This document shows positions 8,382-58,379 of a stretch of DNA of 64,000 nt, piece by piece. The translations under genes were made by a program, and so were the position numbers. This stretch comes from Minisyncoccota bacterium (GTDB lineage: Bacteria > Patescibacteriota > Minisyncoccia > Phycocordibacterales > UBA918), in NCBI GenBank assembly GCA_021129515.1, contig JAJOLD010000001.1:164850-228849 (forward strand), in the 5' to 3' direction. Position 1 is the first letter of the stretch. Every line of letters starts with the position of its first letter. The notes beneath the pieces were generated by a model. That model saw only the letters and a list, made by a program, of their open reading frames with translations, had not been told where the DNA came from and ran no database searches.

Positions 8382-9155
8382 CTAGTGTGGTTCTTCTATC
8401 GCGAGCTTGATGAAGAATAACGTCAGCGTCGCAAAGATAAATGCCTGAATAAACCCAACAAATATCTCAAACGCCAACAATGGTACCGGTACAACGTACG
8501 GCACAAAGAAGAGTGCCACAAGAATAAGGGTTTTTCCAGCAAAAATATTTCCGAAGAGACGGAATGAAAACGACACAAGACGCGCCAACTCACTGATAAG
8601 CTCAATAATACCAATAAGGAACCCAAGTGGTGACTTGAAGTTGATAAACTTCCCTGCGTATTTCACAAATCCAAGCATCAACACACCGGCGATCTCAATG
8701 GTGAAGAACGCCACAATAGCAAACGCAATGGTGATATTGAGGTCAGTGTTACCTGGATACAGAAGTGGAATAAATTTCTCATGGCCGTGTGATTCTCCAT
8801 AGAATCCAATTGAGGTAACGCCGGGCAGGAGCCCCACCCAGTTAATCGCAAGTACAAAAATGAAAATAGTGAGAATGAGCGGGAAGAATTTATTTGCGAG
8901 CTTCTCGCTGCCGAGTGTGTCTTTAATGTATGAAAATGCCCCGCCTACCAATGTTTCCATAGCAGCCTGCCCCTTGCCTGGAATAAGCGCAATATTACGC
9001 TTAAACAAAAATGCACCCACTAACACAATGACCATAACGAACCATACGGTAATGAGTGTATTGGTGATAGGTACACCAAAGGCGTACCCGACTATTTCCG
9101 GGGCAAGGTGGATTGCAATACCATCTCCTGCGGCGTGTGCTGTTTCTACTGCCAT
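8382..9155 (-). CDS. atpB: ATP synthase Fo subunit a
   Basis: multi-TM, conserved Arg in SFSFRLFGNIFAGK. Confidence 0.9.
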   Translation of the reverse strand: MAVETAHAAGDGIAIHLAPEIVGYAFGVPITNTLITVWFVMVIVLVGAFLFKRNIALIPGKGQAAMETLVGGAFSYIKDTLGSEKLANKFFPLILTIFIFVLAINWVGLLPGVTSIGFYGESHGHEKFIPLLYPGNTDLNITIAFAIVAFFTIEIAGVLMLGFVKYAGKFINFKSPLGFLIGIIELISELARLVSFSFRLFGNIFAGKTLILVALFFVPYVVPVPLLAFEIFVGFIQAFIFATLTLFFIKLAIEEPH

Positions 9156-9172
9156 ATCAATCCGTGCAAGTA

Positions 9173-9385
9173 CTATTGCACGCGGGCAGTATATCCTAAC
9201 CTTTCAATCTCTTCAACAATGTTCTGTACGGAAACCTCGTTGAGATCTACTTCAAATATCCCCTTTTTATTATCGAGATCAATATGTACGAATTCCACAC
9301 CATGCAACATCTCGGTCATGGTTTGAATACCAACCACACAGTGGTTTGAGCGAATACCTGAAATGGAGATTTCAATCTTGTCCAT
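9173..9385 (-). CDS. small protein with HMA-like ferredoxin fold signature (no CxxC); longest ORF to 9457 uses TTG
   Basis: MDKIEISISGIRSNHCVVGIQT...; immediately upstream of atpB. Confidence 0.3.
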   Translation of the reverse strand: MDKIEISISGIRSNHCVVGIQTMTEMLHGVEFVHIDLDNKKGIFEVDLNEVSVQNIVEEIERLGYTARVQ

Positions 9386-9416
9386 GGGTATAGTATATAG
9401 TACGTTGAAAATATAC

Positions 9417-9445
9417 TTGACCTTCGAGTGCAAAACTCGTATTAT
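9417..9445 (+). promoter_or_regulatory. sigma70-like promoter TTGACC-17-TATTAT reading into the tRNA-Ala locus
   Basis: consensus -35 and -10 hexamers with 17-nt spacer; identical hexamers at 63547-63575 upstream of rpmG. Confidence 0.45.
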
Positions 9446-9482
9446 AGGCAGGTTCAATTTTTTGAACGCCCATTTTTTATAC

Positions 9483-9504
9483 GGGCCTGTAGCTCAGTTT
9501 GGCT
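9483..9504 (+). pseudogene. tRNA-Ala 5' fragment (acceptor 5' strand, D-stem 5' strand, D-loop), 22 nt, followed by hairpin 9509-9535
   Basis: GGGCCTGTAGCTCAGTTTGGCT matches first 22 nt of the full tRNA-Ala with one change. Confidence 0.7.
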
Positions 9505-9542
9505 GGGGTTGAAAAAGTCTGGGGGACTTTTTCAAAGTTTTG

Positions 9543-9583
9543 ATTTATAAATTAACAAATGAGTTTATTGTTCAGTGCACTGT
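9543..9583. repeat. left arm of ~45-bp imperfect inverted repeat flanking tRNA-Ala
   Basis: atttataaattaacaaatgagtt...ttcagtgcactg is the reverse complement of 9659-9704. Confidence 0.7.
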
Positions 9584-9658
9584 GGGCCCGTAGCTCAGTT
9601 TGGCTAGAGCACCTGTTTTGCACTCAGGAGGTCGCTGGTTCGAGTCCAGTCGGGTCCA
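9584..9658 (+). tRNA. tRNA-Ala (anticodon UGC)
   Basis: cloverleaf folds manually; G3:U70 Ala identity pair; T-loop TTCGAGT; CCA not encoded. Confidence 0.9.
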
Positions 9659-9704
9659 CAGTGCACTGAACTTCAAACGTGAACTCATTTGTTAATTTAT
9701 AAAT
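9659..9704. repeat. right arm of inverted repeat flanking tRNA-Ala
   Basis: reverse complement of 9543-9583 with one indel. Confidence 0.7.
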
Positions 9705-9722
9705 ACTCAGGAGGTCACTGGT
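9705..9722 (+). pseudogene. partial tRNA-Ala copy (anticodon-loop 3' side through T-stem 5' strand), 17/18 match
   Basis: actcaggaggtcactggt vs tRNA ctcaggaggtcgctggt. Confidence 0.6.
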
Positions 9723-10033
9723 GAGAAGCGAATACTTGGAGTGAGAAGTGCTGGGAGCACTTTGCAAGAGGTTAACTGCTGCGCAAGCAGCGACAACCTG
9801 AACAGCTTCAGTGTGAAGTCGCAAGACCTTGGGAGATATTTCTGGAAGCATGAACAGAAATATCCTCAAGGTTGAAACAGGATGTTTCAAGAGGTTGTCA
9901 GTCACGTAAGTGACGACAACCTATACTGCATTTGTAAAATGCACAGAATCTGTATGCAAGGCATTCTAAAACTGCATTCGTAATCCAGATAAAAGTAAAC
10001 TTTATATCTGGTTACTCATTTGTTTTAGTAAGA

Positions 10034-10055
10034 TTCGAGTCCAGTCGGGTCCACA
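10034..10055 (+). pseudogene. tRNA-Ala 3' fragment (T-loop through acceptor 3' strand and discriminator)
   Basis: ttcgagtccagtcgggtccaca identical to 3' 22 nt of tRNA-Ala; separated from 9705-9722 by ~310-nt hairpin-rich insert. Confidence 0.7.
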
Positions 10056-10123
10056 ACACATAAGAAAACCTGCCCTGCGGTAGGTTTTTGCGTTGTGGAA
10101 GGTAAAACTATATTTTTTCTATT

Positions 10124-10190
10124 CCTACATTAAAAAATATTTTTGCCCGGGCAGGTGCTAGTTATGAGCGTTAGCGTGAGAAATGACTTA
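10124..10190. repeat. copy A of tRNA-flank mosaic repeat (cctacat...aaaaata...cccgggcaggt)
   Basis: shares motif with 52776-52844 and 54848-54915. Confidence 0.55.
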
Positions 10191-10425
10191 ACGTCATTTT
10201 GCAAGACTCACTAAGATATTTGAAGTATGAGAAATATCTTAGTGAGTAGACAGTTCCTGTAAGGAATTACTAGCGAACGACACCAGAAGGTCTCGCTTTG
10301 CTTTCGTTTCTATGTGGAAGGCGAAGCGCTGTGAGTTGCCCCTTACCTAGGGTGACGAACCGAGGGTCCGAACAGGAGGTTCTTAGCAAACAAAGTGAAC
10401 TTAGAAACCTGACGTCATCAGAAAA

Positions 10426-10465
10426 GCGAAAAGAGCCCTCTCACTAGTGAGAGGGCTCTTTTCGC
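10426..10465. terminator. 19-bp perfect hairpin (gcgaaaagagccctctcac-tag-gtgagagggctcttttcgc), T-tract on minus-strand side
   Basis: seen directly; lies in the ~600-nt leader upstream of the cyclase gene. Confidence 0.4.
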
Positions 10466-10705
10466 TTAGAAAAACAAGATTATCAATGTCGTATTCAATC
10501 AAAATGTTCTCAGCCATTTTTTGAGCCTTGTCGTAGTTGGGAATTCCCATATATCTATAGTATCCACCTCCTCAGTAAAATGTAACTTATCCCCCATGCC
10601 CTCCTGACAACTTCCGTAAGAGGCATACCCTACGTATAGGACTCGTGCTTGCAGCGGGTTCGTTTTGGGTATAGGGTAGGAGGACATCCTTCACGTACGA
10701 GCAAC

Positions 10706-11287
10706 ATGTCAAAAAATCTGCACCAAGCGTCTATTCTTTTTTCTGACCTCTCTGGTTTCAGTAGGCTTTCTGAAAAAGAAATGGGGCTTTTTTTTGAAAT
10801 TGTACTCGACAGACTCACCCACATCATCACCAAAGAGAAACCGCTTGTTTCTAATACGTGGGGTGATGCACTCTACCTCGTTTTTGATAATACCGATGCA
10901 GCAGCACGCTGCGCACTGGCCATACGCGATACGGTCAAAAATACAGATTGGAAATCATGTCACATCACAAAAGATTTAAAAATGCGTATCGCACTGCATG
11001 CTGCCACCATAACGATGGTGACCGACCCAGTCACCCACAGAGATAATGCTGTTGGGGTTCAGGTAAATAAGGTTGCACGGCTCGAACCCGTGGTACCACC
11101 CAACGAAGTATTTGTCACCGAAGAATTTAAAAAAGCCACCAAACGTTCCAAGACCATACGTTTTGATGACATTGGGTTGGTGACCCTCGCAAAAAAATGG
11201 GGCAGTTCCCATATATACCGACTTCGCAGAAAAACTGATGCCGCATTACTCCCTACCGAGTACGTCGCACTCTTTCCAACGCAGTAA
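10706..11287 (+). CDS. minimal class III adenylate/guanylate cyclase catalytic domain protein (ORF extends to TTG at 10649)
   Basis: ILFSDLSGFSRL (metal Asp), WGDALYLVF, MRIALHAATI, GVQVNKVARLE cyclase-homology-domain motifs; no regulatory domain. Confidence 0.75.
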   Translation: MSKNLHQASILFSDLSGFSRLSEKEMGLFFEIVLDRLTHIITKEKPLVSNTWGDALYLVFDNTDAAARCALAIRDTVKNTDWKSCHITKDLKMRIALHAATITMVTDPVTHRDNAVGVQVNKVARLEPVVPPNEVFVTEEFKKATKRSKTIRFDDIGLVTLAKKWGSSHIYRLRRKTDAALLPTEYVALFPTQ

Positions 11288-11395
11288 AAGACAAAGGGCT
11301 ATACATGCACTTCTCTTCGCTTGTGTTGCATATAATGGAAAGGCCCCAGCATTACTGGAGCCCTTTGTTCTGTCGTGAGTACATGTGTGCTGCGC

Positions 11396-11626
11396 CTAGT
11401 CGATACTGAATGTAGGAACTTTAGGCATCGGCAGACCTCTCTCAAGCGCAGCTTCCAAAGATGGGCTAAATATACGACCCGCAGGATAAATCGTGAAAAA
11501 TGGACCTGTGCACTCTGCACCTGCTTGTACACATAGTGTATCGCGTATGTGCGGCGAATCTGCTTCATGTACACCTGTATCAGCATCATCTTCTGCTTCC
11601 AAACCCACAAAAAAAGTTTCACTCAT
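11396..11626 (-). CDS. hypothetical small acidic protein
   Basis: strong SD GGAGGTG 6 nt upstream of ATG; convergent with cyclase. Confidence 0.45.
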   Translation of the reverse strand: MSETFFVGLEAEDDADTGVHEADSPHIRDTLCVQAGAECTGPFFTIYPAGRIFSPSLEAALERGLPMPKVPTFSID

Positions 11627-28525: not shown

Positions 28526-28548
28526 CGTAAGTGGCTGCCGGAGGGACT
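28526..28548 (-). pseudogene. degenerate tRNA-Gln 3'-end copy (minus sense gacgagtccctccggcagcc)
   Basis: compare tRNA-Gln 3' end ttcgagtccctgtccggcagc; a second, inverted T-arm copy lies at 28601-28626 on the plus strand. Confidence 0.45.
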
Positions 28549-28642
28549 CGTCCTGACGGTTTCTAAACTCACTTCGTTCGTTAAGAACCGCGGGACACGG
28601 CTCGCAGACCCAAAGGGTCCCCTGCTCCGGCGGTTCGAGTCC

Positions 28643-28670
28643 CAAGAAAGGTGCGCAGGCACCTTTCTTG
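28643..28670. other. perfect 12-bp hairpin caagaaaggtgc-GCAG-gcacctttcttg
   Basis: seen directly; adjacent to tRNA-Gln fragments. Confidence 0.6.
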
Positions 28671-28680
28671 TCCAGTAGCA

Positions 28681-28705
28681 TGAGAAAAAGCGCATAAAGC
28701 GCTTT
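28681..28705 (-). terminator. terminator after tRNA-Gln (aaagcgc-tttat-gcgcttt + TTTCTC in minus sense)
   Basis: 7-bp stem and U tract downstream of the tRNA. Confidence 0.5.
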
Positions 28706-37212: not shown

Positions 37213-37539
37213 TTAGTCTTCGTCTTTTATAACTAATCGTGTACCAGAGGAGTGCTTCTTTGAATCACTTTTTTTTGTAAATCCAATGTGCGCACCACGG
37301 TTTAAGATAAATGAGAACAGTTGTGAGACAAAACCGCCATTTGCAACAAACGAACGGAGGTTGCTCACATCTTCGGCAATTACTTCACTCCCTGCTTCAA
37401 TGCGATCAATAATATTCTGTACTGATTTAAGAATTTTAATGACATGGTAGATTGCGATACAAAGCAGGAGCGTAAAAACAATCACTGCAATGCTTGTCAC
37501 AAAGAAAAATATATTTGCATGAAGTACCTCACTCATCAC
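37213..37539 (-). CDS. small membrane-anchored coiled-coil protein (DUF948-like)
   Basis: N-terminal TM + helical region. Confidence 0.35.
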   Translation of the reverse strand: MMSEVLHANIFFFVTSIAVIVFTLLLCIAIYHVIKILKSVQNIIDRIEAGSEVIAEDVSNLRSFVANGGFVSQLFSFILNRGAHIGFTKKSDSKKHSSGTRLVIKDED

Positions 37540-38620
37540 TATTTAGTGTACCAGAGGAATTGAGAATGTCGCGAGGTACCTGTTGAACAAACCGATCAAC
37601 GATTGCAGCAACCTCATCAGGTGTATTGGTCTCCATGAGTGCCGCACGCAACTGACTCGCTCCGGGGAACCCATGCACATATGCTTTATAGTGTTTCTTC
37701 ATGATTGCAAAATTTTTAAACGGTAGGAGTTCCACAAAAAGAGCGGTATGTTCGACCATGACGCGGAGGCGTTCACGGAGAGAGATTACCTCATGTTCAG
37801 TTTCGTTTGTCGACGCCGTCGACAAAGCCATGTGCTCAGGAAGGCACTTTGAGGGGTGGAAAAGCCACGGGTTGCCGAATATAGCCCTCCCCAACATCGC
37901 GCCATCAGCACCACTCTCAGCAATTCGTGTATGCGCATCCTCGAGTGAAGTAACATCACCATTACCAAAAATAAGTGTCTCGCTGCCGAGTGCGTCACGA
38001 ATCTCAACCGCTCGAGCAATGCGCTCCCATCGAGCAGGTACCTTCGAAAGTTCTTTACGGGTCCGGGCATGGAGTGTGAGTACTGCTGGTTCTTCTGCCA
38101 AGATCTCGGGTACCCAGGTTTCGATTTCGTCAACGTTGTATCCCAAGCGTGTTTTGACCGACACCGGAAGCGAACCCGCGCCGCGCTTTGCTGCACGAAT
38201 GACTGCTCGTGCTTTCTTAGGGCCTTTAATCATTGCTGAGCCACACCCTTGTTTTTCTATCGTACGCGCAGGGCACCCCATATTTAAGTCGATACCATCA
38301 AATCCAAGATCAGCAGCAAGTTTTGCAGCCGCTTCCATATATTCCTCATTACTGGAAAAGAGCTGTGCCACAATTGGTCGCTCTTCCTCCGTATACATAA
38401 GGTCTGCCATGAGTTTCTCCTTCCCCTCAGGGGTCGCACGCATAAGCCCATCAGCCGCAACAAACTCAGTCCAGGTAACATCGGGACCACCAACAGTGCC
38501 GTCTTTCCGTGTGTGTGCTGAGTACTTTGCGATCATACGCCTAAATGGCGCGTCGGTGACGTCTGCCATCGGCGCAAGAACCATAATCGGTTTTGGGAGT
38601 TTCTTCCAGAAATGAGACAT
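37529..38620 (-). CDS. dus: tRNA-dihydrouridine synthase
   Basis: TIM-barrel FMN motifs; MGCPA active-site Cys region. Confidence 0.85.
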   Translation of the reverse strand: MSHFWKKLPKPIMVLAPMADVTDAPFRRMIAKYSAHTRKDGTVGGPDVTWTEFVAADGLMRATPEGKEKLMADLMYTEEERPIVAQLFSSNEEYMEAAAKLAADLGFDGIDLNMGCPARTIEKQGCGSAMIKGPKKARAVIRAAKRGAGSLPVSVKTRLGYNVDEIETWVPEILAEEPAVLTLHARTRKELSKVPARWERIARAVEIRDALGSETLIFGNGDVTSLEDAHTRIAESGADGAMLGRAIFGNPWLFHPSKCLPEHMALSTASTNETEHEVISLRERLRVMVEHTALFVELLPFKNFAIMKKHYKAYVHGFPGASQLRAALMETNTPDEVAAIVDRFVQQVPRDILNSSGTLNSDE

Positions 38621-41785: not shown

Positions 41786-42664
41786 ATGATTACATGTATG
41801 AGCACCTTCCCTATTCATACGCTTTCCAAAAATGAATTTCCCAAGCAACTTTTGGAAATCCCCAAGCCTCCCGAAGTGCTTACCTACCGAGGTGCACTGC
41901 CACCCGACACCGCCAAGTGCTTAGCGGTTGTTGGCTCACGCAACTACACCAACTACGGCAAGCAAGCACTCGAGTATTTGATACGCAGTCTCCGTGGACA
42001 CAACATCGCGATTATTTCGGGCCTCGCACTCGGCATCGACAGCCTCGCACATAAAGCAGCACTCGACGCGGAGCTCTATACCCTCGCGGTCCCCGGTTCG
42101 GGTATCGACGACTCAGTCATTTACCCCCGTCGTCACAAAGGACTCGCCTACGAAATACTGGGAGCTGGTGGCGGACTCCTCTCAGAATTCGAACCGACTT
42201 TCAAAGCGACCACCTGGTCCTTCCCGCAGCGCAACAGAATTATGGCAGGGCTTGCAGACGCAGTACTCGTGGTAGAAGCAACACAAAAATCAGGCACGCT
42301 GATTACCGCGCGCCTCGCAACTGACTACAACCGTGATGTGCTCACGATTCCGGGTGATATATTTTCCGCTTCGAGCGAAGGCCCACATATGCTCATTAAG
42401 CTGGGCGCAACCCCGGTGACAACACCTGAAGATATTCTTGAAGCACTCCATATTGATACTGAGCCTACTACCGCACCCCTCCCAATCGACGACCTACCAC
42501 AAGAAGAAGCGTCTATACTCGCACTCCTTAGCGCTCCAACTGAGCGAGATACACTCGTACGTGCCGCGAATATGGACACACAAACCTGCACAACAACCCT
42601 TACCATGATGGAGATTAAGGGACTTATTAGTATCGACGGCAATGTTGTGCGGAGATTGCGGTAA
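41786..42664 (+). CDS. dprA: DNA processing protein DprA
   Basis: Rossmann-like DprA core (AVVGSRNYTNYG...SGLALGIDS...). Confidence 0.85.
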   Translation: MITCMSTFPIHTLSKNEFPKQLLEIPKPPEVLTYRGALPPDTAKCLAVVGSRNYTNYGKQALEYLIRSLRGHNIAIISGLALGIDSLAHKAALDAELYTLAVPGSGIDDSVIYPRRHKGLAYEILGAGGGLLSEFEPTFKATTWSFPQRNRIMAGLADAVLVVEATQKSGTLITARLATDYNRDVLTIPGDIFSASSEGPHMLIKLGATPVTTPEDILEALHIDTEPTTAPLPIDDLPQEEASILALLSAPTERDTLVRAANMDTQTCTTTLTMMEIKGLISIDGNVVRRLR

Positions 42665-48571: not shown

Positions 48572-48650
48572 GTAGGAATTGGTAGGTAAAACAGTACGGG
48601 GTACTGTTTTACCTCAAAATCATATGGAGCAATCCATGAGGGTTTGACCT
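48572..48650 (+). pseudogene. tRNA-Leu pseudo-copy with hairpin (48585-48613) replacing D-stem 3' and anticodon-stem 5' strands
   Basis: ggaattggta + hairpin + cctcaaaatcatatggagcaatccatgagggtttgacc parallels the tRNA. Confidence 0.55.
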
Positions 48651-48664
48651 CAATACAGACAAAA

Positions 48665-50800: not shown

Positions 50801-52150
50801 ATGCAGCGTGTCGATTTTGCATACCCTCTGGTACACAAGTACGCACTACAATTAATTATTATGGTGGGATTGCTGCTTTCGTATAGCACAACCGCACATG
50901 CCGCACCCTGTCATACCTATACGTATGCAAACACACCACAGAGCACACTTGGTGCACCCTATGACGTGTTTGATAGTGCGCACCGCACACTCGTGCGTGT
51001 AGACTGCTCCGACAACACCATCCAACTCACCTTAGGAAACACCGGGCGCAAACACCTCATACACACAACTGGGTATATAGAGTTCTCGCCAGGCGTGTTT
51101 ACCCCTTTTTCCATTACTCCCGCTACTGCTGCCGTTACCCTTGATGCTTCATGGATAGTTGCGCACGCAGCGCAAGGCACAATCACGGTACCGCCCACCG
51201 CATATGGCACCACTGCGTATATCTATACATACCTCTGCCAAGTACGCAGCGGTGCTGAGGGCAAGAGCCTCAAGTGTGGATGTAATGCTACCTCGCAACA
51301 TTCGTGTACACAAACACACGGCACGTATGCAGGAAGCTGGACACTGCAAAAAGTAACCATTCCAACACCAACCACATCCACACACAATACCGAAAAAGGA
51401 TTCCGTATTCTTATCGGCACTAACCAGCTCTATCCAGAAGAAGCAGCGCAAGCACATCGCTTTGCAGCAGATGGTGCGTGGGTACTACATCGTAATAGTC
51501 CTCCAGGAATTAATTGGAAGCAAACACTCAAAACACTCAATGCAGATACCTGGACCGTTTCTGAAAACAATCCCGGAGGGACTGGCGGTGTGACAAACTT
51601 CACCGTTGCACATACCGGAAAAATGGTTGATGCTGCCATGTTTTATGAGGAGATACCCATGAAGACAATACTTCCTGATACCCTGATTGATCATTTTGCC
51701 GCACATACCGTGGCAGGATATGGCAGCATCGGAAAACGTATGGTGGTACTCACTCGTAGCTTTGGAGTCAGTGACCCCCGCCGTGCAGAGCTCATACATG
51801 CACTCTCACACCCAATGGTTGTGGGTGCAACCTTCGAGTTTAACCCGAGCATACTGAATCCTGCATGGAAGATACCCGAAGGCTGTGCTTATGTGCTCAG
51901 TCTTGGCAAGCAGTGTTACCTCCTTATGCCACCAATACGAGATGGCAATACCGATTTCCTCAGTAGCATACAACAGGCACTCAAAAAGTTTGAGCCAAGT
52001 GGTGTCCTCCGCAATCCCAACACCTATCTCATTCCCGCGGTCTATGCACGCCCCAATAATCAACACTTCCTCAGCACCAGCCCATCCGATAGAAATAGTA
52101 TTGAAGCAATTGTGACATGGCTCAAAGCATATCGAAGAGAATTCCAATAA
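50801..52150 (+). CDS. secreted hypothetical protein
   Basis: N-terminal signal peptide ...STTAHAAP; 449 aa no motif. Confidence 0.5.
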   Translation: MQRVDFAYPLVHKYALQLIIMVGLLLSYSTTAHAAPCHTYTYANTPQSTLGAPYDVFDSAHRTLVRVDCSDNTIQLTLGNTGRKHLIHTTGYIEFSPGVFTPFSITPATAAVTLDASWIVAHAAQGTITVPPTAYGTTAYIYTYLCQVRSGAEGKSLKCGCNATSQHSCTQTHGTYAGSWTLQKVTIPTPTTSTHNTEKGFRILIGTNQLYPEEAAQAHRFAADGAWVLHRNSPPGINWKQTLKTLNADTWTVSENNPGGTGGVTNFTVAHTGKMVDAAMFYEEIPMKTILPDTLIDHFAAHTVAGYGSIGKRMVVLTRSFGVSDPRRAELIHALSHPMVVGATFEFNPSILNPAWKIPEGCAYVLSLGKQCYLLMPPIRDGNTDFLSSIQQALKKFEPSGVLRNPNTYLIPAVYARPNNQHFLSTSPSDRNSIEAIVTWLKAYRREFQ

Positions 52151-52215
52151 CAATCATATACAGGAATCCGTTTGACCTTCTTCTCAGTTTGCCCTACCAT
52201 ATGGGGCATTGATTA

Positions 52216-52287
52216 GGGTCTATAGTTTAATTGGTAAAACAGCGGTCTCCAAAACCGCCGTTCTCAGTTCAAGTCTGAGTGGACCCG
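52216..52287 (+). tRNA. tRNA-Trp (anticodon CCA)
   Basis: manual fold; anticodon loop CUCCAAA. Confidence 0.9.
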
Positions 52288-52312
52288 CAGTGATTCAACA
52301 TTCTGTAATAGT

Positions 52313-52397
52313 CTTCTTACAGAAGCAGTATACCTTTTGGACATTCTTCATAATATCTCAAAAGGTCTTGCAAAAGTGCTTTGGCACTTTCTCACCC
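52313..52397. repeat. mosaic repeat piece (cttcttacagaagcagtatacc...ggtcttgcaaaagtgc), homologous to 54782-54850
   Basis: direct comparison. Confidence 0.55.
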
Positions 52398-52408
52398 AGA
52401 CTGTTTAA

Positions 52409-52449
52409 GTCCAAAACCAGCGGCCGTGGTTCGAGTCCACGTGGGCCCG
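52409..52449 (+). pseudogene. diverged tRNA 3' half (anticodon CCA onward: gtccaaaacc...cgtggttcgagtccacgtgggcccg)
   Basis: same layout as tRNA-Trp 3' half but different T-arm/acceptor sequence. Confidence 0.5.
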
Positions 52450-52456
52450 CTATCAG

Positions 52457-52489
52457 AAAATACCCAGCTTTTGCTGGGTATTTTCTTTT
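52457..52489 (+). terminator. rho-independent terminator aaaatacccagc-tttt-gctgggtatttt + cttttac
   Basis: perfect stem + T tract. Confidence 0.65.
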
Positions 52490-52693
52490 ACCCGAAGTTA
52501 AGTTTCAGAACTTTTTATTGTATTTTTTATTTTTTTATTGCATAGTTGAAATCAACCTGGGTACAAGTATGTGTTTGGAGTACTCCTGCTCATTACTCTA
52601 CTTTTCGTCAAGTTCAAGTGACGGTAACAAACCGCTTTCCCTTTCTGGGTGAGCGGTGTTTTTATACAACCAACTCCTGCAATATTTGAATGT

Positions 52694-52844
52694 TTGATTT
52701 GATATACTCCCTTTCTTTATACAGTTCTGAAAGCCACGTTTCTTGCCCGAAAAGAATTTGTATATTTTTGCTATACCTACATGCAAAAATACAAATTCTC
52801 GGGCAGGTAATTCTTATGAATGTAATGAATTAGAATTGGACGCC
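52694..52844. repeat. mosaic repeat copy B (R1 piece + cctacatgcaaaaataca...cgggcaggtaa...ttggacgcc)
   Basis: aligned to copies at 10124, 53669, 54782. Confidence 0.6.
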
Positions 52845-53127
52845 GAGTCCTCACGAACAAATCCTTTACCAAGAATCTTGCGCCGCCCGAGCAAACTGCT
52901 TTGCTTTTACTCGAGCGGGAGCCGCAGACAGATTTCTGGCTTCTGACATAGAGCCAGAAACAGTCGAGACGGGGTCGAGAGTACTTAGTGCTCACAACTA
53001 GCGAAGCGAATGAAAACACTTAGTCACTCGTGACCGCAATGAAATATTTAATAGTTACTGGTTATTTTTATGTACCCTACGTTTAAGTTCAGAACCTTCA
53101 TCAGCACTGTAGAGTTACAAAACCTAT

Positions 53128-53635
53128 ATGCAAATCATTTTATTTAGAGGGCGACCTGGTGTTGGAAAAACAACACCAACTAACGCATTTATAAAAAAGC
53201 ACCCTTACTTTCTCATTCGTAAGGACGACTTGTATGACGTAGCATCAGAGGTGCTCACTGAGCATCATGCCAGAAACAAAATCGCCTATGATGGCCTTTA
53301 TACACTGTTAGCAAGTAATGTGATGTACTCTAAGAGTGATTTTAGATTATCCGTTCCAGCACGATGGAGACATACACATCATGAGAAACTGGTGTCATCA
53401 AAACAATGTTGTTTTTAAATCAATTTTGGTGACCTGCTCTGACACACACGTTTGGTCAGAACGGCTAGCTGCCAGGTCTACAAACCCCAAACCAAATCAG
53501 TTGGTAACTGACTATGATGCATTTGAAAAAATGTACGGCACGATGCAGCTTGAAGCAGACACTGGTGAACTGGTTGTCGACAGCATACACCCAATTGAAA
53601 CAATCATACAGCAGGTTCGTAGTTTTGTGGCATAA
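53128..53635 (+). pseudogene. P-loop NTPase/kinase (AAA_33-like) split by a frameshift near 53340-53420
   Basis: Walker A GRPGVGKTT in ORF 53128-53418; continuation in ORF 53336-53635. Confidence 0.45.
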
Positions 53636-53668
53636 GCATCAATCGATACAAACTGTAGTGAGACCTGA

Positions 53669-53745
53669 ACGCTGGATTTGATACACTCCCGCTCCTCATG
53701 CAATTCTGAAAGCCACATTTTTTGCTCGAGAGTTGAAAATATGAA
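53669..53745. repeat. mosaic repeat piece R2 (ctggatttgatacactccc...ttctgaaagccac)
   Basis: ~60-nt similarity to 52694-52760; begins with inverted tRNA-Tyr T-arm-like ctggatttga. Confidence 0.55.
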
Positions 53746-53764
53746 GTTGCTGAGACATTCCCTA

Positions 53765-54139
53765 TTAACACTTCAATGTATTCCACCCACCCGTCTGTAA
53801 GAAGGATTGGTCAACAAGCATAGAGAGGATAGTGTCAATAATAAGCCATGCAGCAAGCATAATGATGAACCCTATCAGCACATTTGAAAAAATACCCTTC
53901 CCTTTCTGTATTTGGCTCATATTACCAGCAGCCGTAATCATCAAAAAACCTGCCCATGCAAATGCGATGCCAGCAAGTACTGTCGAGAATTTAATAATGA
54001 AGGTCAACATACGGTCAACCAATTCAAGCAGGTGACAAAAGTTACAATTTACTCCATTACACGGTACTAATTGTGCAAATGCCAAAGTAGGCACCAAGTA
54101 CCCTACCACCATTAAGATTGTCAACATGTAGAATCTCAT
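53765..54139 (-). CDS. VirB2/TrbC-like pilin candidate
   Basis: signal peptide, Cys-rich VPCNGVNCNFC, two hydrophobic helices, ~120 aa. Confidence 0.3.
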   Translation of the reverse strand: MRFYMLTILMVVGYLVPTLAFAQLVPCNGVNCNFCHLLELVDRMLTFIIKFSTVLAGIAFAWAGFLMITAAGNMSQIQKGKGIFSNVLIGFIIMLAAWLIIDTILSMLVDQSFLQTGGWNTLKC

Positions 54140-54248
54140 GCCTCAATAGTAGCACACCTTTTCTATCCACTTTCATACTTCAGTGAGTTATGGTACGGTA
54201 TACCCTGCGTTTTGTATTGCAATTTATGCAGAATACAGTTTCACACAT

Positions 54249-54594
54249 GCGTCGGTGGCAGAGTGAGAAAGCGTGGGACGCTTTCGCAAGACCTTGCCCG
54301 ATATTTTTTGAGGCGAATGCCGACAGTAAAATATCGACAAGGTGTACAGCGTCTGTAAGACGGAAAGGATGTCGGGACACTCTTCTAAGAAAAAGCGTTC
54401 TAACAAAAGAATAATTATGCGTCGGTGGCAGAGTGGATGAGAAGTGAACTACTTCACTTCTCATCTGGTCTTCGAGCGAATGCGAGAAGATTGGTCGTTA
54501 TGAGTATTTGCGCAGCTTATACGAATAGACCAAAGGAGGAAACGCGGTCGAACGCCCGCCAGAGAAAATGCGTTCTTACTAAAATCGGATACTT
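54249..54594 (+). repeat. two tandem ~170-176-bp units each containing leader + tRNA-Tyr 5' 17-18 nt + perfect hairpin (54267-54284; 54437-54464)
   Basis: GCGTCGGTGGCAGAGTG at 54249 and 54419 equals tRNA-Tyr 5' end; upstream leaders also similar. Confidence 0.7.
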
Positions 54595-54678
54595 GCGTCG
54601 GTGGCAGAGTGGTCAATTGCATCAGACTGTAAATCTGACGGGCTTCGCCCTACGCTGGTTCAAATCCAGCCCGGCGCA
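54595..54678 (+). tRNA. tRNA-Tyr (anticodon GUA), long variable arm
   Basis: manual fold; anticodon loop CUGUAAA; T-arm GCTGG-TTCAAAT-CCAGC. Confidence 0.9.
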
Positions 54679-54680
54679 CA

Positions 54681-54712
54681 AATAAAAACACCCCGGATGG
54701 GGTGTTTTTATT
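54681..54712 (+). terminator. rho-independent terminator aaaacaccccggatggggtgttttt
   Basis: perfect stem + T tract. Confidence 0.65.
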
Positions 54713-54759
54713 TGTGCGCCGGGAGCACGTGACCTGCGTCACGTGCGGCTGGATTTGAA
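54711..54759 (-). pseudogene. inverted copy of tRNA-Tyr 3' end interrupted by 23-nt palindromic hairpin (agcacgtgacctgcgtcacgtgc)
   Basis: tttgtgcgccggg[...]ggctggatttgaa is the reverse complement of ttcaaatccagcccggcgcacaaa. Confidence 0.6.
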
Positions 54760-54781
54760 AGGAATTCATATATTTTTCCTA

Positions 54782-54915
54782 CTTCTTATAGAAGCAGTAC
54801 ACCTTTGTAAACAAAGGTCTTGCGAAAGTCTCCAAGACTTTTTCACCTACATGGAAAAATATGAATTCCCGGGCAGGTAACTCTTGAGAGCGTAAGCGAA
54901 CTAGAGTTGGACGCC
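54782..54915. repeat. mosaic repeat copy C (complete version)
   Basis: cttcttatagaagcag...cctacatggaaaaatatgaattcccgggcaggtaactc...ttggacgcc. Confidence 0.6.
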
Positions 54916-55036
54916 AAATTCAGTCCCTATACTCACTCCCCTATCTAGCTGACAAACTCCAAAATCAGTCCTGCGTTTTTCAAAACAATGTAATAAAGAA
55001 ACCGCCCGACAGCGCAGGCGGCTCTCGGGCGTCATT

Positions 55037-55360
55037 TTAGTTTTCTCCTTGTTTCATGAGAACAGTAACTGCTTCGTATGCTTTTGGACACTCGTCGCGC
55101 ACCACAGATAGAAATACCTCAATCAGCAGATCTAGATTGCGTGCCATACCAGCTGCAACTCTTGGAGATATGCAGTGGGAGTAGTCGTCAAACAAGGACC
55201 ACGACACATCTTCCCAGGGTATTTGCTTGTCCGCCTCTTCGAGAGCAGCCGCATAGACATCAAAATGCGTTCGGTGGTCAGCTTTGATAAGAGGAGAGAT
55301 GGTTCCCAAAGGGCGATTTCTCCGTTGAAACCAACGTCGATATCCCAACCTTGCCTGCAA
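55037..55360 (-). CDS. hypothetical protein
   Basis: 107 aa ORF; hairpin + T tract downstream in minus sense. Confidence 0.3.
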   Translation of the reverse strand: MQARLGYRRWFQRRNRPLGTISPLIKADHRTHFDVYAAALEEADKQIPWEDVSWSLFDDYSHCISPRVAAGMARNLDLLIEVFLSVVRDECPKAYEAVTVLMKQGEN

Positions 55361-57326: not shown

Positions 57327-58181
57327 GTGGGCAGTTTTTTTATTTGCTATACTCACTCCATGTCATCATTTCCGCCATATGCGACTATTGAAAAATATAT
57401 TGGGGAGACTCCTCTTGAGGCTTCTAAGCGGTTGCGTGAGAATTTGCACATCCCCAAAAACATACCGCTTGCGTACGCTGGCAGACTCGACCCGATGGCA
57501 TCGGGCACGCTTCTCATACTCATTGGTGACGAGTGCAAACGGCAAACCGAGTATCACTCGCTCGACAAGACCTATACATTTGAAATACTCTTTGGTGCGC
57601 AGTCAGATACTGGCGATGTTCTAGGATTAGTACAACCATGTAGTACTGACACTGGCATTGCTGCACATGCTTTGCAAAAAACACTTCGTACCCTATGCGG
57701 AAATATCGAACTCTCCTATCCACACTTTTCCTCAAAGACAGTGAACGGAAAACCCCTGCATACATGGACACTTGAAGGGAGACTCAGTGAAATCGATATC
57801 CCAACCAAGCAGTCGACGATATATGTACTAACACTTTTAGAACTTCGTACCGTTTCCGCAAAGGAGGTAGAAGCATATGTGATGGAGAAAATAGAGACAC
57901 CAACGACTGTAACTGCTGATTCGAAGAAACTTGGTGCGAACTTCAGACGCGATGACGTGCGCGCTTCTTGGAAGACCTTTTTTAAAACCGCTGAGCATAC
58001 TGAGTTTCAGATAGCGGGCATACGCTGTACTGCGTCATCGGGTACCTATATGCGCTCGCTTGCGGAAGAAATAGCGGAGCGGTTCGGAACCTGTGGGCTT
58101 GCATACAGCATCCACCGTACTACCATCGGTAGGTATCAAAAAATATTTGGGGATGTTGGGTTTTGGAGGAAGAAGTTCTAA
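57327..58181 (+). CDS. truB: tRNA pseudouridine(55) synthase TruB-like
   Basis: catalytic Asp motif AGRLDPMASG, 284 aa. Confidence 0.65.
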   Translation: MGSFFICYTHSMSSFPPYATIEKYIGETPLEASKRLRENLHIPKNIPLAYAGRLDPMASGTLLILIGDECKRQTEYHSLDKTYTFEILFGAQSDTGDVLGLVQPCSTDTGIAAHALQKTLRTLCGNIELSYPHFSSKTVNGKPLHTWTLEGRLSEIDIPTKQSTIYVLTLLELRTVSAKEVEAYVMEKIETPTTVTADSKKLGANFRRDDVRASWKTFFKTAEHTEFQIAGIRCTASSGTYMRSLAEEIAERFGTCGLAYSIHRTTIGRYQKIFGDVGFWRKKF

Positions 58182-58379
58182 ACTCAGCATACAACGGTCA
58201 TCGGGTGAGCTATGGTCGTACCGCAACCGATGACCTCACTGAAATCCTGAATCAGGTTCAGGATGACAACCACCCAAAACATGTTTCAAAAGTGTTCAGA
58301 TTCGCAGTGAGATATGCTGGGAGCACTGTTACACCTAAACAGCTCCTGTAAGGAGGCAAGCAAGTACTTCTTGAGTGCA

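Follow-up and report, generated by a model that had tools for sequence, protein, structure and literature searches.

How does a working tRNA-Ala gene come to lie among the pieces of a second tRNA-Ala copy, and what are the folded RNAs that surround it? The question is raised by a tRNA-Ala locus of a Minisyncoccota bacterium (Patescibacteriota; GenBank assembly GCA_021129515.1, contig JAJOLD010000001.1). The locus lies in a stretch of 64,000 nucleotides (nt; contig positions 164,850–228,849, forward strand), which was analysed as a whole and is called the window below; all window positions are counted from its first letter. A first, sequence-only reading saw a functional tRNA-Ala gene between ~45-bp inverted repeats, nested inside an older, interrupted tRNA-Ala, and did not recognise this as a described bacterial organisation. 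Our analysis places the locus differently: rather than a one-off, it is one instance of a wider Patescibacteria pattern, and the most complete example of a general phenomenon involving tRNA genes, partial copies of those genes and conserved RNA modules.

A complete tRNA-Ala gene within a broken copy

The locus contains one complete tRNA gene. ARAGORN and the Rfam tRNA model (64.1 bits, against a threshold of 29) each return exactly one tRNA-Ala(UGC), at 9584–9658/9, and its G3:U70 pair can be read from the alignment, in agreement with the sequence-only reading. A second tRNA in the outer copy is reported by neither tool. The partial hits foreseen alongside the full one come instead from a repeat search, which finds three outer pieces that surround the intact gene in tRNA order and match it at 17 to 22 positions each (Table 1); both the partial copies and their description as collinear parts of a second tRNA-Ala enclosing the working gene are thereby borne out. 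In a k-mer scan of all 64 kb, runs of overlapping tRNA-Ala 11-mers occur only at the three fragment sites, and the fragments are therefore not chance low-complexity matches, as had also been held. Isolated stray 11-mers lie at 28632, 28728 and 52427–52429 (all T-arm sequence), and at 9426. One further candidate, an 11-nt reverse-complement match of the anticodon region in the promoter spacer (9426–9436), was rejected, being within chance for an all-against-all comparison of a 1.2-kb region.

Comparison of the two copies revealed two points of interest. Firstly, the greater age of the outer copy is not supported: of the 62 positions that can be compared with the inner gene, just two differ (C6/T6 and G49/A49), so that either the duplication is recent or the copies have been homogenised. 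Secondly, the gap of ~16 nt originally described in the outer copy is not a simple absence. Its D-stem 3' strand and anticodon-stem 5' strand are indeed lost, but a hairpin stands in place of tRNA positions ~22–29. On the far side of the inner gene, the right repeat arm runs directly into A37 of the outer copy. The six nucleotides that follow the hairpin, GTTTTG, are a possible remnant of the outer anticodon stem and loop; if they do represent positions 30–35, the repeat-flanked gene would sit between G35 and A37, with only C36 lost. GTTTTG could instead be leader sequence, because the tRNA-Ala leader of a relative (L005) contains TTTTGATTT.

The hairpin and the promoter at 9417 were both returned by consensus scans, in line with the sequence-only reading. 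The hairpin passes the terminator scan (12 pairs, a 3-nt loop, 3 GC pairs, tail AGTTTTGATT), with an interrupted tail. What did not hold is the treatment of a 5' fragment followed by a hairpin as a feature private to this locus, since the combination recurs in three other places. In L015, from another species, GGGCCTGTAGCTCATCTGGTAG matches that locus's own tRNA-Ala at 22/22 positions and is followed by a hairpin with a GGGG loop, by anticodon-loop sequence (ACTTGCAC), by decayed sequence and finally by the real tRNA. In the window, a tRNA-Leu pseudogene (48583–48655) begins 23 nt after tRNA-Leu(CAA): GGAATTGGTA, from the D loop, gives way to a 13-bp hairpin with a GGG loop that replaces positions ~22–32, after which 36 nt match tRNA-Leu from the anticodon loop to the T loop (TCAAAATC...); the acceptor strands are lost. 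The third place is a set of tRNA-Tyr fragments, described below. The hairpins of L015, the tRNA-Leu pseudogene and the tRNA-Ala locus occupy the same tRNA position, with different stem sequences, retained pairing and G-rich loops; those of L015 and the pseudogene have no U tract. In both of these, the anticodon loop resumes after the hairpin, an analogy which supports reading GTTTTG as a possible anticodon-loop remnant.

Which copy occupies the ancestral place can be judged from the flanks. Upstream of tRNA-Ala(UGC) in L005, L010, L014 and L020 there is a conserved promoter block, TTGAC(C/T)-N17-CGTAT(T/G)ATA (TTGAC-N17-CGTATTATA); in L010, a homologue of the window's leader hairpin comes after the promoter (GGGTTCAAAAAATTTTGAAC; GGGTTCAA...TTGAAC). 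In the window, this block and the leader hairpin run into the outer 5' fragment. Downstream, the tRNA trailers of L010, L017, L092 and L095 consist of an A-rich spacer and a terminator hairpin whose outer stem pairs with the last bases of the tRNA, and then TGTG(G)A(A)GGCGGAGC, with which a conserved RNA (X, below) begins. The same series comes after the outer 3' fragment, not after the inner gene. As conserved promoter and leader precede the outer pieces, and conserved terminator and trailing RNA follow them, it is the outer pieces that hold the position of the ancestral gene. Of the nested interpretation, the placement of the outer copy thus stands, and its greater age is left unsupported.

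Two observations on these flanks may be added. At L014 (1–260, minus strand), the tRNA-Ala locus carries tandem units, each consisting of the leader and the first 30 nt of the tRNA, as well as a mini-helix GGGCCTG-hairpin-CGGGCCC; the contig, which includes a run of N, opens at the 3' end of the tRNA. Hairpins with a CUGC loop recur across species in terminators and in inverted copies of tRNA ends (window 10066–10085, 28672–28695 and 54713–54736; L010, L017 and L090), and the loop may be protein-binding or especially stable.

The inverted repeat around the inner gene comprises a perfect 23-bp outer block (9543–9565/9682–9704) and a perfect 14-bp inner core (9570–9583/9660–9673), with an asymmetric internal loop between them. 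A 28-nt arm of 86% identity returned by the repeat search (9563–9590/9651–9678) is partly tRNA acceptor stem. Folding of 9540–9710 (171 nt) yields −85.8 kcal/mol (z = −11.5) and one long stem with the cloverleaf at its tip, which confirms the structure proposed by the sequence-only reading. In the predicted fold, the two perfect blocks form a long, near-perfect leader/trailer duplex of the kind that characterises RNase III processing stems; RNase III may process the inner tRNA.

In the relative L005, tRNA-Ala is flanked by a shorter leader/trailer stem, TTTCAGTGT/ACACTGAAA, which is related in sequence to, and resembles, the inner block of the window repeat, TTCAGTGCACTGTG/CACAGTGCACTGAA. This suggests that the stem belongs to the tRNA's own flanks, of which it may be an old property, rather than representing the ends of a foreign element. 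No further copy of the 23-nt arm occurs in the 64-kb window, even allowing three mismatches, and searches of phage and plasmid collections match the tRNA itself only. Nor is any target-site duplication clear, because the terminal ATTTATAAAT is itself palindromic. A transposon or miniature inverted-repeat transposable element carrying the tRNA was rejected on these grounds.

Table 1. Coordinates of features in and around the tRNA-Ala locus, and of the remaining strict copies of module M in the window
Feature	Position	Strand	Basis
Promoter-like site, TTGACC-17 nt-TATTAT	9417–9445	+	Consensus scan; sole such site upstream of the locus
Leader hairpin, GGTTCAA-TTTT-TTGAACG	9451–9468	+	Read from sequence
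Outer 5' fragment, tRNA positions 1–21 (acceptor 5' strand, D-stem 5' strand, D loop)	9483–9504	+	21/22 to 9584–9605
Hairpin, perfect 11-bp stem, G-rich loop, in place of tRNA positions ~22–29; terminator-like	9509–9535	+	Consensus scan
GTTTTG, possible remnant of positions 30–35 (anticodon stem/loop) of the outer copy	9537–9542	+	Direct reading; 6 nt, weak alone
Left inverted-repeat arm, leader of the working tRNA	9543–9583	+	Repeat search, folding; 23-nt outer block occurs only twice in the window
Intact tRNA-Ala(UGC), G3:U70, no encoded CCA	9584–9659	+	ARAGORN; Rfam RF00005, 64.1 bits
Right inverted-repeat arm, trailer of the working tRNA	9660–9704	+	Repeat search, folding
Outer middle fragment, tRNA positions 37–54; A49 pairs Watson-Crick with U65	9705–9722	+	17/18 to 9622–9639
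Structured insert in the outer T loop: full M (9741–9818), weak partial M (9910–9941), further GNRA-type hairpins	9723–10033	+	Fold z = −6.5
M copy in the insert	9741–9818	+	Pattern, R1
Outer 3' fragment, T loop to 3' end plus CA	10034–10055	+	22/22 to 9639–9660
Trailer hairpin: outer stem pairs the tRNA-like 3' end with GTTGTGGA; inner terminator-like hairpin, CUGC loop	10050–10099	+	Inverted repeat
First trailing RNA, X-like, second M module (10176–10266) replacing the terminal hairpin	10094–10290 (approximate limits)	+	Alignment reading
M copy in the trailing RNA	10176–10266	+	R1, 57 bits
Second trailing RNA, X core, conserved hairpin GGUUCUUAG...CUUAGAAACC	10300–10428	+	R2, 94.6 bits; the copy is an R2 training sequence
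Perfect 22-bp palindrome closing the locus, terminator-like on the minus strand	10424–10467		Repeat search, consensus scan
M copy between tRNA-Trp and the diverged tRNA-Trp 3' half	52313–52395	Opposite to tRNA-Trp	Pattern
M copy fused to a tRNA-Tyr 5' fragment	54263–54362		Pattern
M copy after tRNA-Tyr	54782–54846	Opposite to tRNA-Tyr	Pattern

Conserved RNA modules at tRNA genes

The ~310 nt inserted in the outer T loop are not merely rich in hairpins, as originally described; they contain a conserved RNA module, termed M here, that is also found at other tRNA loci and in other species. The layout of M is G(G)UGAGAA – P1 (5 bp, often with a G-rich loop) – UUYGCAAGA – P2 (long, variable) – UGNACWG – P3 (4 bp, UGUAA-type loop). 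The corresponding sequence-only pattern, GARAA-N9-24-TYGCAAGA, has 13 matches in 1.45 Mb; seven of these possess all three helices, while the other six lack at least P2 and P3. Five of the seven strict copies lie in the window, all of them adjoining tRNA genes or fragments, in both orientations.

The seven strict copies were aligned after loop trimming. In this alignment, 99% of cells are paired, a percentage that is inflated and partly circular, hairpins having been one ground for accepting a copy; compensatory change is seen at 13 of 14 pairs, and none of 500 shuffles reaches the observed values. When the registers are slid, pairing falls to 41–51%. On the aligned sequences, the hairpin-based choice of copies does not account for the compensatory changes that adjoin invariant junctions, and these changes argue that M is a genuine conserved RNA motif.

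A covariance model for M (R1) recovers the seven copies at 55–68 bits and adds weaker M-like matches inside an open reading frame (ORF) of L094, after tRNA-Gly in L094, at window positions 58307–58355, and in L016 and L008. Within the insert, R1 scores 61.2 bits at 9741–9818 and 15.5 bits at 9910–9941, and nhmmer finds 9718–9844 similar to an intergenic RNA of L008 (E = 2.5e-4). The junctions of the insert with the outer tRNA, GGT/GAGAAG and TTTTAGTAAGA/TTCGAG (the stroke marks the boundary), resemble the first and second junctions of M, and ACTCATTTGTT, found in the right repeat arm, recurs where the insert ends. The insert may be largely built from M; we read the remainder as M-related hairpins, R1 having detected one full M and one weak partial only.

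Two of the weaker matches deserve separate mention. The M-like module of L094 (7212–7286, minus strand; 37.6 bits) lies in an apparent protein-coding region, in a low-complexity charged linker, and may be an in-frame element insertion. The one at 58307–58355 is a reduced element, in which P1 and P3 are kept and the second junction and P2 are missing; it occupies the gap after the TruB gene, with no adjoining tRNA.

The two RNAs that trail the outer 3' fragment belong to a second family, X. Its layout is GGCGGAGC – variable hairpin – CGAGCC-AGGGCAGGAGG – hairpin UUCUUAR...GAAGYGA...YUUAGAAACC, and the X core at 10300–10428 is homologous to tRNA-trailing RNAs in L010 and L012. A covariance model (R2) gives 17 hits in 931 kb, 15 of them downstream of a tRNA gene when read against the ARAGORN calls. 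A metagenome scan for the X hairpin used a strict pattern and hence returned six loci only, five of which lie 106–124 nt downstream of a same-strand tRNA (Cys, Gly, Leu, Gln, Phe). Across all sites seen, X measures ~110–130 nt, carries the conserved hairpin GGUUCUUAR-N5-GAAGYGARY-UUAGAAACC, and trails tRNA genes of many isotypes (window 10094–10428 and 52736–53047; L010, L012, L014, L015, L017 and L090–L095); its terminal hairpin can be replaced by other modules.

Neither M nor X has an Rfam match. Rfam scans of 9300–11500 and 52000–55300, at gathering and at E-value thresholds (E up to 10 for 9300–11500), return tRNAs only: no group I or II intron, RtT, ROOL, GOLLD, tmRNA, RNase P or signal recognition particle (SRP) RNA. 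A literature search found no description of M, X or the nested tRNA layout. Possible resemblances of M and X to RNase P, SRP, 5S and T-box RNAs are leads only.

Partial copies and modules accompany many tRNA genes. A typical unit starts with the tRNA and a terminator, continues with an inverted copy of the tRNA 3' part, in many cases interrupted by a CUGC-loop hairpin, and with an X or half-M core, and closes with a direct 3'-end copy. The direct copy extends from just past GGTTC of the T loop to the 3' end, sometimes carries on into a terminator copy, and contains CCA if CCA is part of the gene (L036). Self-fragments of at least 12 nt are found within 700 nt of 18/46 tRNAs, and a direct copy of the tRNA's own 3' end lies 118–374 nt downstream of 12/46.

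Within the window, the tRNA-Gln, tRNA-Tyr, tRNA-Trp and tRNA-Leu loci all carry variants of the pattern. The tRNA-Gln locus (28539–28700, minus strand) shows the terminator, then an inverted 3'-end copy with a CUGC-loop hairpin inside it, then an X core (84 bits; itself an R2 training sequence) and a direct 3'-end copy. At the tRNA-Tyr locus (54249–54900; gene 54595–54679), two 5' fragments lie upstream, consisting of positions 1–16 at 54249 (fused to M) and positions 1–18 at 54419 (followed by a 12-bp hairpin). Downstream, the tRNA 3' end forms part of a 25-bp terminator hairpin, after which comes an inverted 3'-end copy split by a CUGC-loop hairpin; the opposite-strand M module sits within a 17-bp stem. 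The tRNA-Trp locus (52216–52500) contains an opposite-strand M, a diverged tRNA-Trp 3' half (~52413–52452) and then a terminator. This 3' half shares TCCAAAACC (a 9-nt identity block) with the gene and has a different, still self-complementary T stem; the whole looks like an attL-element-attR layout.

The tRNA-Ala locus differs from the usual units. Their bracketing helix has an inverted tRNA 3'-end copy as its 5' strand, and the working gene stands before the unit. At the tRNA-Ala locus, by contrast, that strand is a real tRNA 5' part plus a T-stem strand, and it is the unit that encloses the working gene.

Explanations for the nested arrangement

The reading that we favour, and which we hold as likely to be right as wrong, is that a tRNA-Ala unit has been remodelled by partial duplication together with a lineage-specific set of small structured-RNA elements associated with tRNA genes, leaving the outer copy dead. 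The outer copy is taken to be dead because (i) its D-stem 3' and anticodon-stem 5' strands are replaced by a G-loop hairpin, (ii) its anticodon loop holds a complete tRNA-Ala gene with its own leader/trailer stem, and (iii) its T loop holds ~310 nt, including an M module. All observed junctions fall in D, anticodon or T loops. Recurrent breakpoints in these loops, elements in either orientation and the single ORF-borne copy speak for insertion or recombination of elements at tRNA loops. Compensated helices and unvarying junctions show selection on RNA structure; the M and X elements may be "selfish but structured" or "functional".

Under this reading, the inner gene would supply the cell's tRNA-Ala(UGC). 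Transcription would start at 9417–9445 and stop in part at the hairpin at 9509–9535, with the remainder reading through; the usual tRNA end-processing enzymes would then excise the inner tRNA, the stem of 37 bp or more perhaps helping or serving as an RNase III site. The RNAs M and X, enclosed by helices whose strands are copies of the tRNA's T stem and acceptor, would be released as separate folded RNAs or kept as stable parts of the trailer. The elements would spread or persist by inserting in, or recombining at, tRNA loops, each event leaving a partial tRNA copy behind.

Several points weigh against this account. In a dead copy, divergence would be expected unless the event was recent or gene conversion is active, and the near-identity of the outer pieces leaves room for a function of the fragments. 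Given the resemblance to L005, the inner gene and its stem could equally be the ancestral unit, around which fragments were added. The order of events cannot be reconstructed, because no relative shows the locus in a "before" state: the comparison covered 80 species genomes (the closest at 60–68% AtpB identity, metagenome-assembled genomes labelled Kaiserbacteria, Paceibacteria or Patescibacteria) and AtpB homologues down to 73–78% identity, the nearest relatives are not syntenic in the atp-upstream region, and the AtpB homologue search returned none above 78% identity besides the same strain. Some M-like copies lie away from tRNAs (L008, window 58307, L016), and the choice of M copies was, as noted, partly circular. 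Lastly, no transposase, integrase or reverse transcriptase was found by Pfam on 15 ORFs or among the domains precomputed on the independent assembly L001.

The rival that survives best, though we consider it unlikely, is that the composite is functional as it stands, with the tRNA pieces being working parts of regulatory or scaffold RNAs. The 5' fragment and hairpin could form an attenuator, the T-stem/acceptor helices could be RNase P/RNase Z handles for M and X, and M might dock tRNA. Several features are in keeping with this. Fragments match the cognate tRNA in two distant lineages, with hairpin stems that differ yet pair; the only promoter-like site feeds the 5' fragment and the terminator-like hairpin ahead of the tRNA; downstream units combine an acceptor-like helix with a side hairpin and a T-like helix, the last of which finishes with an exact tRNA 3' end (with CCA in L036); and the junctions of M are invariant and loop-like (UGAGA, UGCAA, UGUAA). 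Against these stand the loss of the acceptor strand from the tRNA-Leu pseudogene and the decay of the 3' part of the L015 pseudo-tRNA, both as expected for dead copies; the direct repeats that pass the mature tRNA end into terminators (L090, L010 Pro), pointing to duplication of DNA; and the occurrence of M in both orientations relative to the tRNA. The docking of tRNA by M is, moreover, a conjecture modelled on the RNase P/T-box motif.

A bolder version, which we put forward as doubtful, makes M and X the RNA parts of an undescribed, tRNA-gene-specific system in Patescibacteria, built on copies of acceptor and T-arm strands of the tRNA so as to mature via tRNA processing, and recognising tRNAs or tRNA genes; on the same tentative footing, that recognition would either regulate tRNA supply or direct self-insertion into tRNA loops. 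T-loop-type motifs dock the tRNA elbow in RNase P and T-box RNAs, and by analogy the invariant UGAGA/UGCAA/UGUAA junctions of M could form such motifs. The nested tRNA-Ala locus would, if such a system exists, be its best-preserved insertion record.

It is rather improbable, in our judgement, that the fragments are instead scars of serial integrase-type integration into tRNA-Ala (attL/attR), in which every element brought a substitute tRNA segment that displaced the resident one and was later deleted to a few hundred nt. The fragment boundaries do fall in the anticodon loop and the T loop, reportedly the classic crossover sublocations of integrases, and direct repeats of the required kind are present (9622–9639/9705–9722 and 9639–9660/10034–10055 here, with similar repeats at 12/46 tRNAs). 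Direct tRNA 3'-end repeats, running into the terminator, flank ~150-nt segments at many tRNAs, and the tRNA-Trp locus, with TCCAAAACC followed by a heterologous, T-stem-compensated 3' half, resembles attL-element-attR. However, the material between repeats is always small (~120–375 nt; 46 and 311 nt at the tRNA-Ala locus), and the same RNA motifs occur at many isotypes; one element cannot match the 3' ends of Cys, Gln, Phe, Pro, Gly, Leu and Ala tRNAs. The D loop, in which the 5' fragments end, is an unusual site for integrases, and the middle fragment (37–54) runs straight into the insert where nested integration would give a contiguous 37–76. No recombinase or integrase is encoded in the tested ORFs (the neighbouring genes and ten others in the window).

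Two explanations carry very little weight. That the locus is an assembly artefact, with tRNA repeats of different strains collapsed or mis-joined, is highly improbable: contigs from other samples do stop inside it (at ~9646, ~9862, ~10094 and ~10438), and only two assemblies span the whole, but an independent ENA assembly (L001) covers the entire locus at 99.8% identity over 1552 nt, two Logan contigs confirm the left part (one of them, L002, covering 9151–9862), and analogous architectures occur in unrelated assemblies of other species. We take the contig ends as an effect of repeats and hairpins, at which breaks are expected in short-read assemblies.

Least credible of all is a self-splicing intron, in the form of the T-loop insert or the repeat-flanked segment, that would let the outer copy yield a second tRNA-Ala: group I introns often occur in the tRNA genes of Patescibacteria, with an enrichment at position 35/36 (PMC13011429), and the insert is rich in GNRA-type hairpins, but there is no group I or II Rfam match in 9300–11500 even at E = 10 (RF00028 can miss divergent introns of Patescibacteria), the insertion in the anticodon loop comes after G35 where known bacterial tRNA group I introns follow U, no choice of splice sites around the T-loop insert brings back a T loop of 7 nt, and the insert's module is found outside tRNA genes too. 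Nor does the outer copy qualify as a functional intron-containing tRNA, as it has neither positions 22–29, and with them the D-stem 3' strand and the anticodon-stem 5' strand, nor C36. A group I intron in the T loop was accordingly rejected, on its boundaries and on the lack of a detected core.

Genomic setting and comparison with known systems

On the minus strand, an F-type ATP synthase operon ends at atpB (8382–9155) and is followed by a small HMA-domain gene (9173–9388). The tRNA-Ala locus occupies the 1.25-kb gap between this gene and a class III cyclase-like gene (10706–11287). The latter, directly after the tRNA/RNA cluster, encodes a stand-alone 193-amino-acid (aa) class III nucleotidyl cyclase-like protein with no partner domain (Pfam Guanylate_cyc, E = 8e-8, measured on the longer 212-aa ORF at 10649–11287). 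Between cluster and cyclase gene lies the palindrome at 10424–10467, which has no spacer and at which contigs of two other assemblies end. Pfam searches of the neighbouring genes and ten other window ORFs identified housekeeping genes only. The window also encodes DprA (41786–42664), a mediator of DNA uptake and recombination that is relevant if transformation exchanges tRNA cassettes, as well as the tRNA-modifying enzymes Dus (37529–38620) and TruB (57327–58181).

Patescibacteria genomes are tiny, yet several hundred nt per tRNA gene go to conserved folded RNA and partial tRNA copies. If M and X are functional, they represent a hitherto unrecognised layer of tRNA expression or processing in a major uncultured lineage. 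If selfish, they are a new kind of small element targeting tRNA genes, and a bacterial counterpart to the gene disruption thought to underlie archaeal split tRNA genes. A practical consequence is that short-read assemblies break at these fragments and modules, which could also lead to errors in tRNA annotation; the two candidate families are now defined well enough for surveys.

Of the systems known, the E. coli tyrT operon comes closest in its logic: its distal repeats (RtT RNA, RF00391) are downstream units that end in a tRNA 3' segment and are released during tRNA processing. The units described here likewise lie downstream of a tRNA and end in tRNA 3' sequence (10034–10055; L090, L093, L095, L010 Pro and L036). 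They differ in carrying an inverted tRNA-3' copy, M or X cores and 5' fragments, in occurring at many isotypes, and in enclosing a working gene at the tRNA-Ala locus; the E-value-mode Rfam scans of 9300–11500 and 52000–55300 give no RF00391 match.

Small palindromic elements, including the Rickettsia palindromic elements (RPE), the Correia elements of Neisseria, and enterobacterial repetitive intergenic consensus (ERIC) and repetitive extragenic palindromic (REP) sequences, invade RNA and protein genes. M and X resemble them in their many diverged copies, strong predicted folding, both orientations and one M-like copy in an ORF (L094). Unlike them, M and X are multi-helix RNAs with invariant single-stranded junctions and a strong preference for tRNA genes, and show no terminal inverted repeats or fixed-length target duplications. 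Integrase att scars share with the present loci an intact tRNA with displaced partial copies, boundaries in the anticodon and T loops, and direct tRNA 3'-end repeats; the segments here are set apart by their length of 120–375 nt with no recombinase, the same core at different tRNAs, 5' ends in the D loop and covarying RNA motifs.

To our knowledge, RNase III leader/trailer stems have been described for rRNA, not for a single bacterial tRNA gene. The stem around the inner gene is like those of rRNA operons in placing a mature RNA at the tip of long complementary flanks, here as a predicted fold only, and a leader/trailer stem of this type is seen in one relative only, the shorter one of L005.

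In Archaea, disrupted, split and permuted tRNA genes (Nanoarchaeum; Caldiarchaeum subterraneum, PMC3293823) are broken at loops, and a link to mobile elements has been proposed. Breakage at loops and complementary flanks able to join the pieces are common to both; the present host is a bacterium, the outer copy is missing stem strands without which no tRNA can be rebuilt, and a complete gene is present. For the group I introns of tRNA genes in Patescibacteria (Nakagawa et al. 2026, PMC13011429), the site is the anticodon loop, the preceding base is a U, the last intron base is G, and splicing restores a canonical tRNA. They come from the same phylum and are likewise structured RNA insertions in tRNA genes, including at position 35/36; at the present locus, in contrast, no group I core is detected, neither the sites nor the boundary bases agree, and of the insertions one is a tRNA gene while another occupies the T loop. 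The locus combines variants of two known kinds of arrangement, partial duplication of a tRNA gene and RNAs embedded in a tRNA operon, with two RNA motif families, M and X, that are apparently undescribed.

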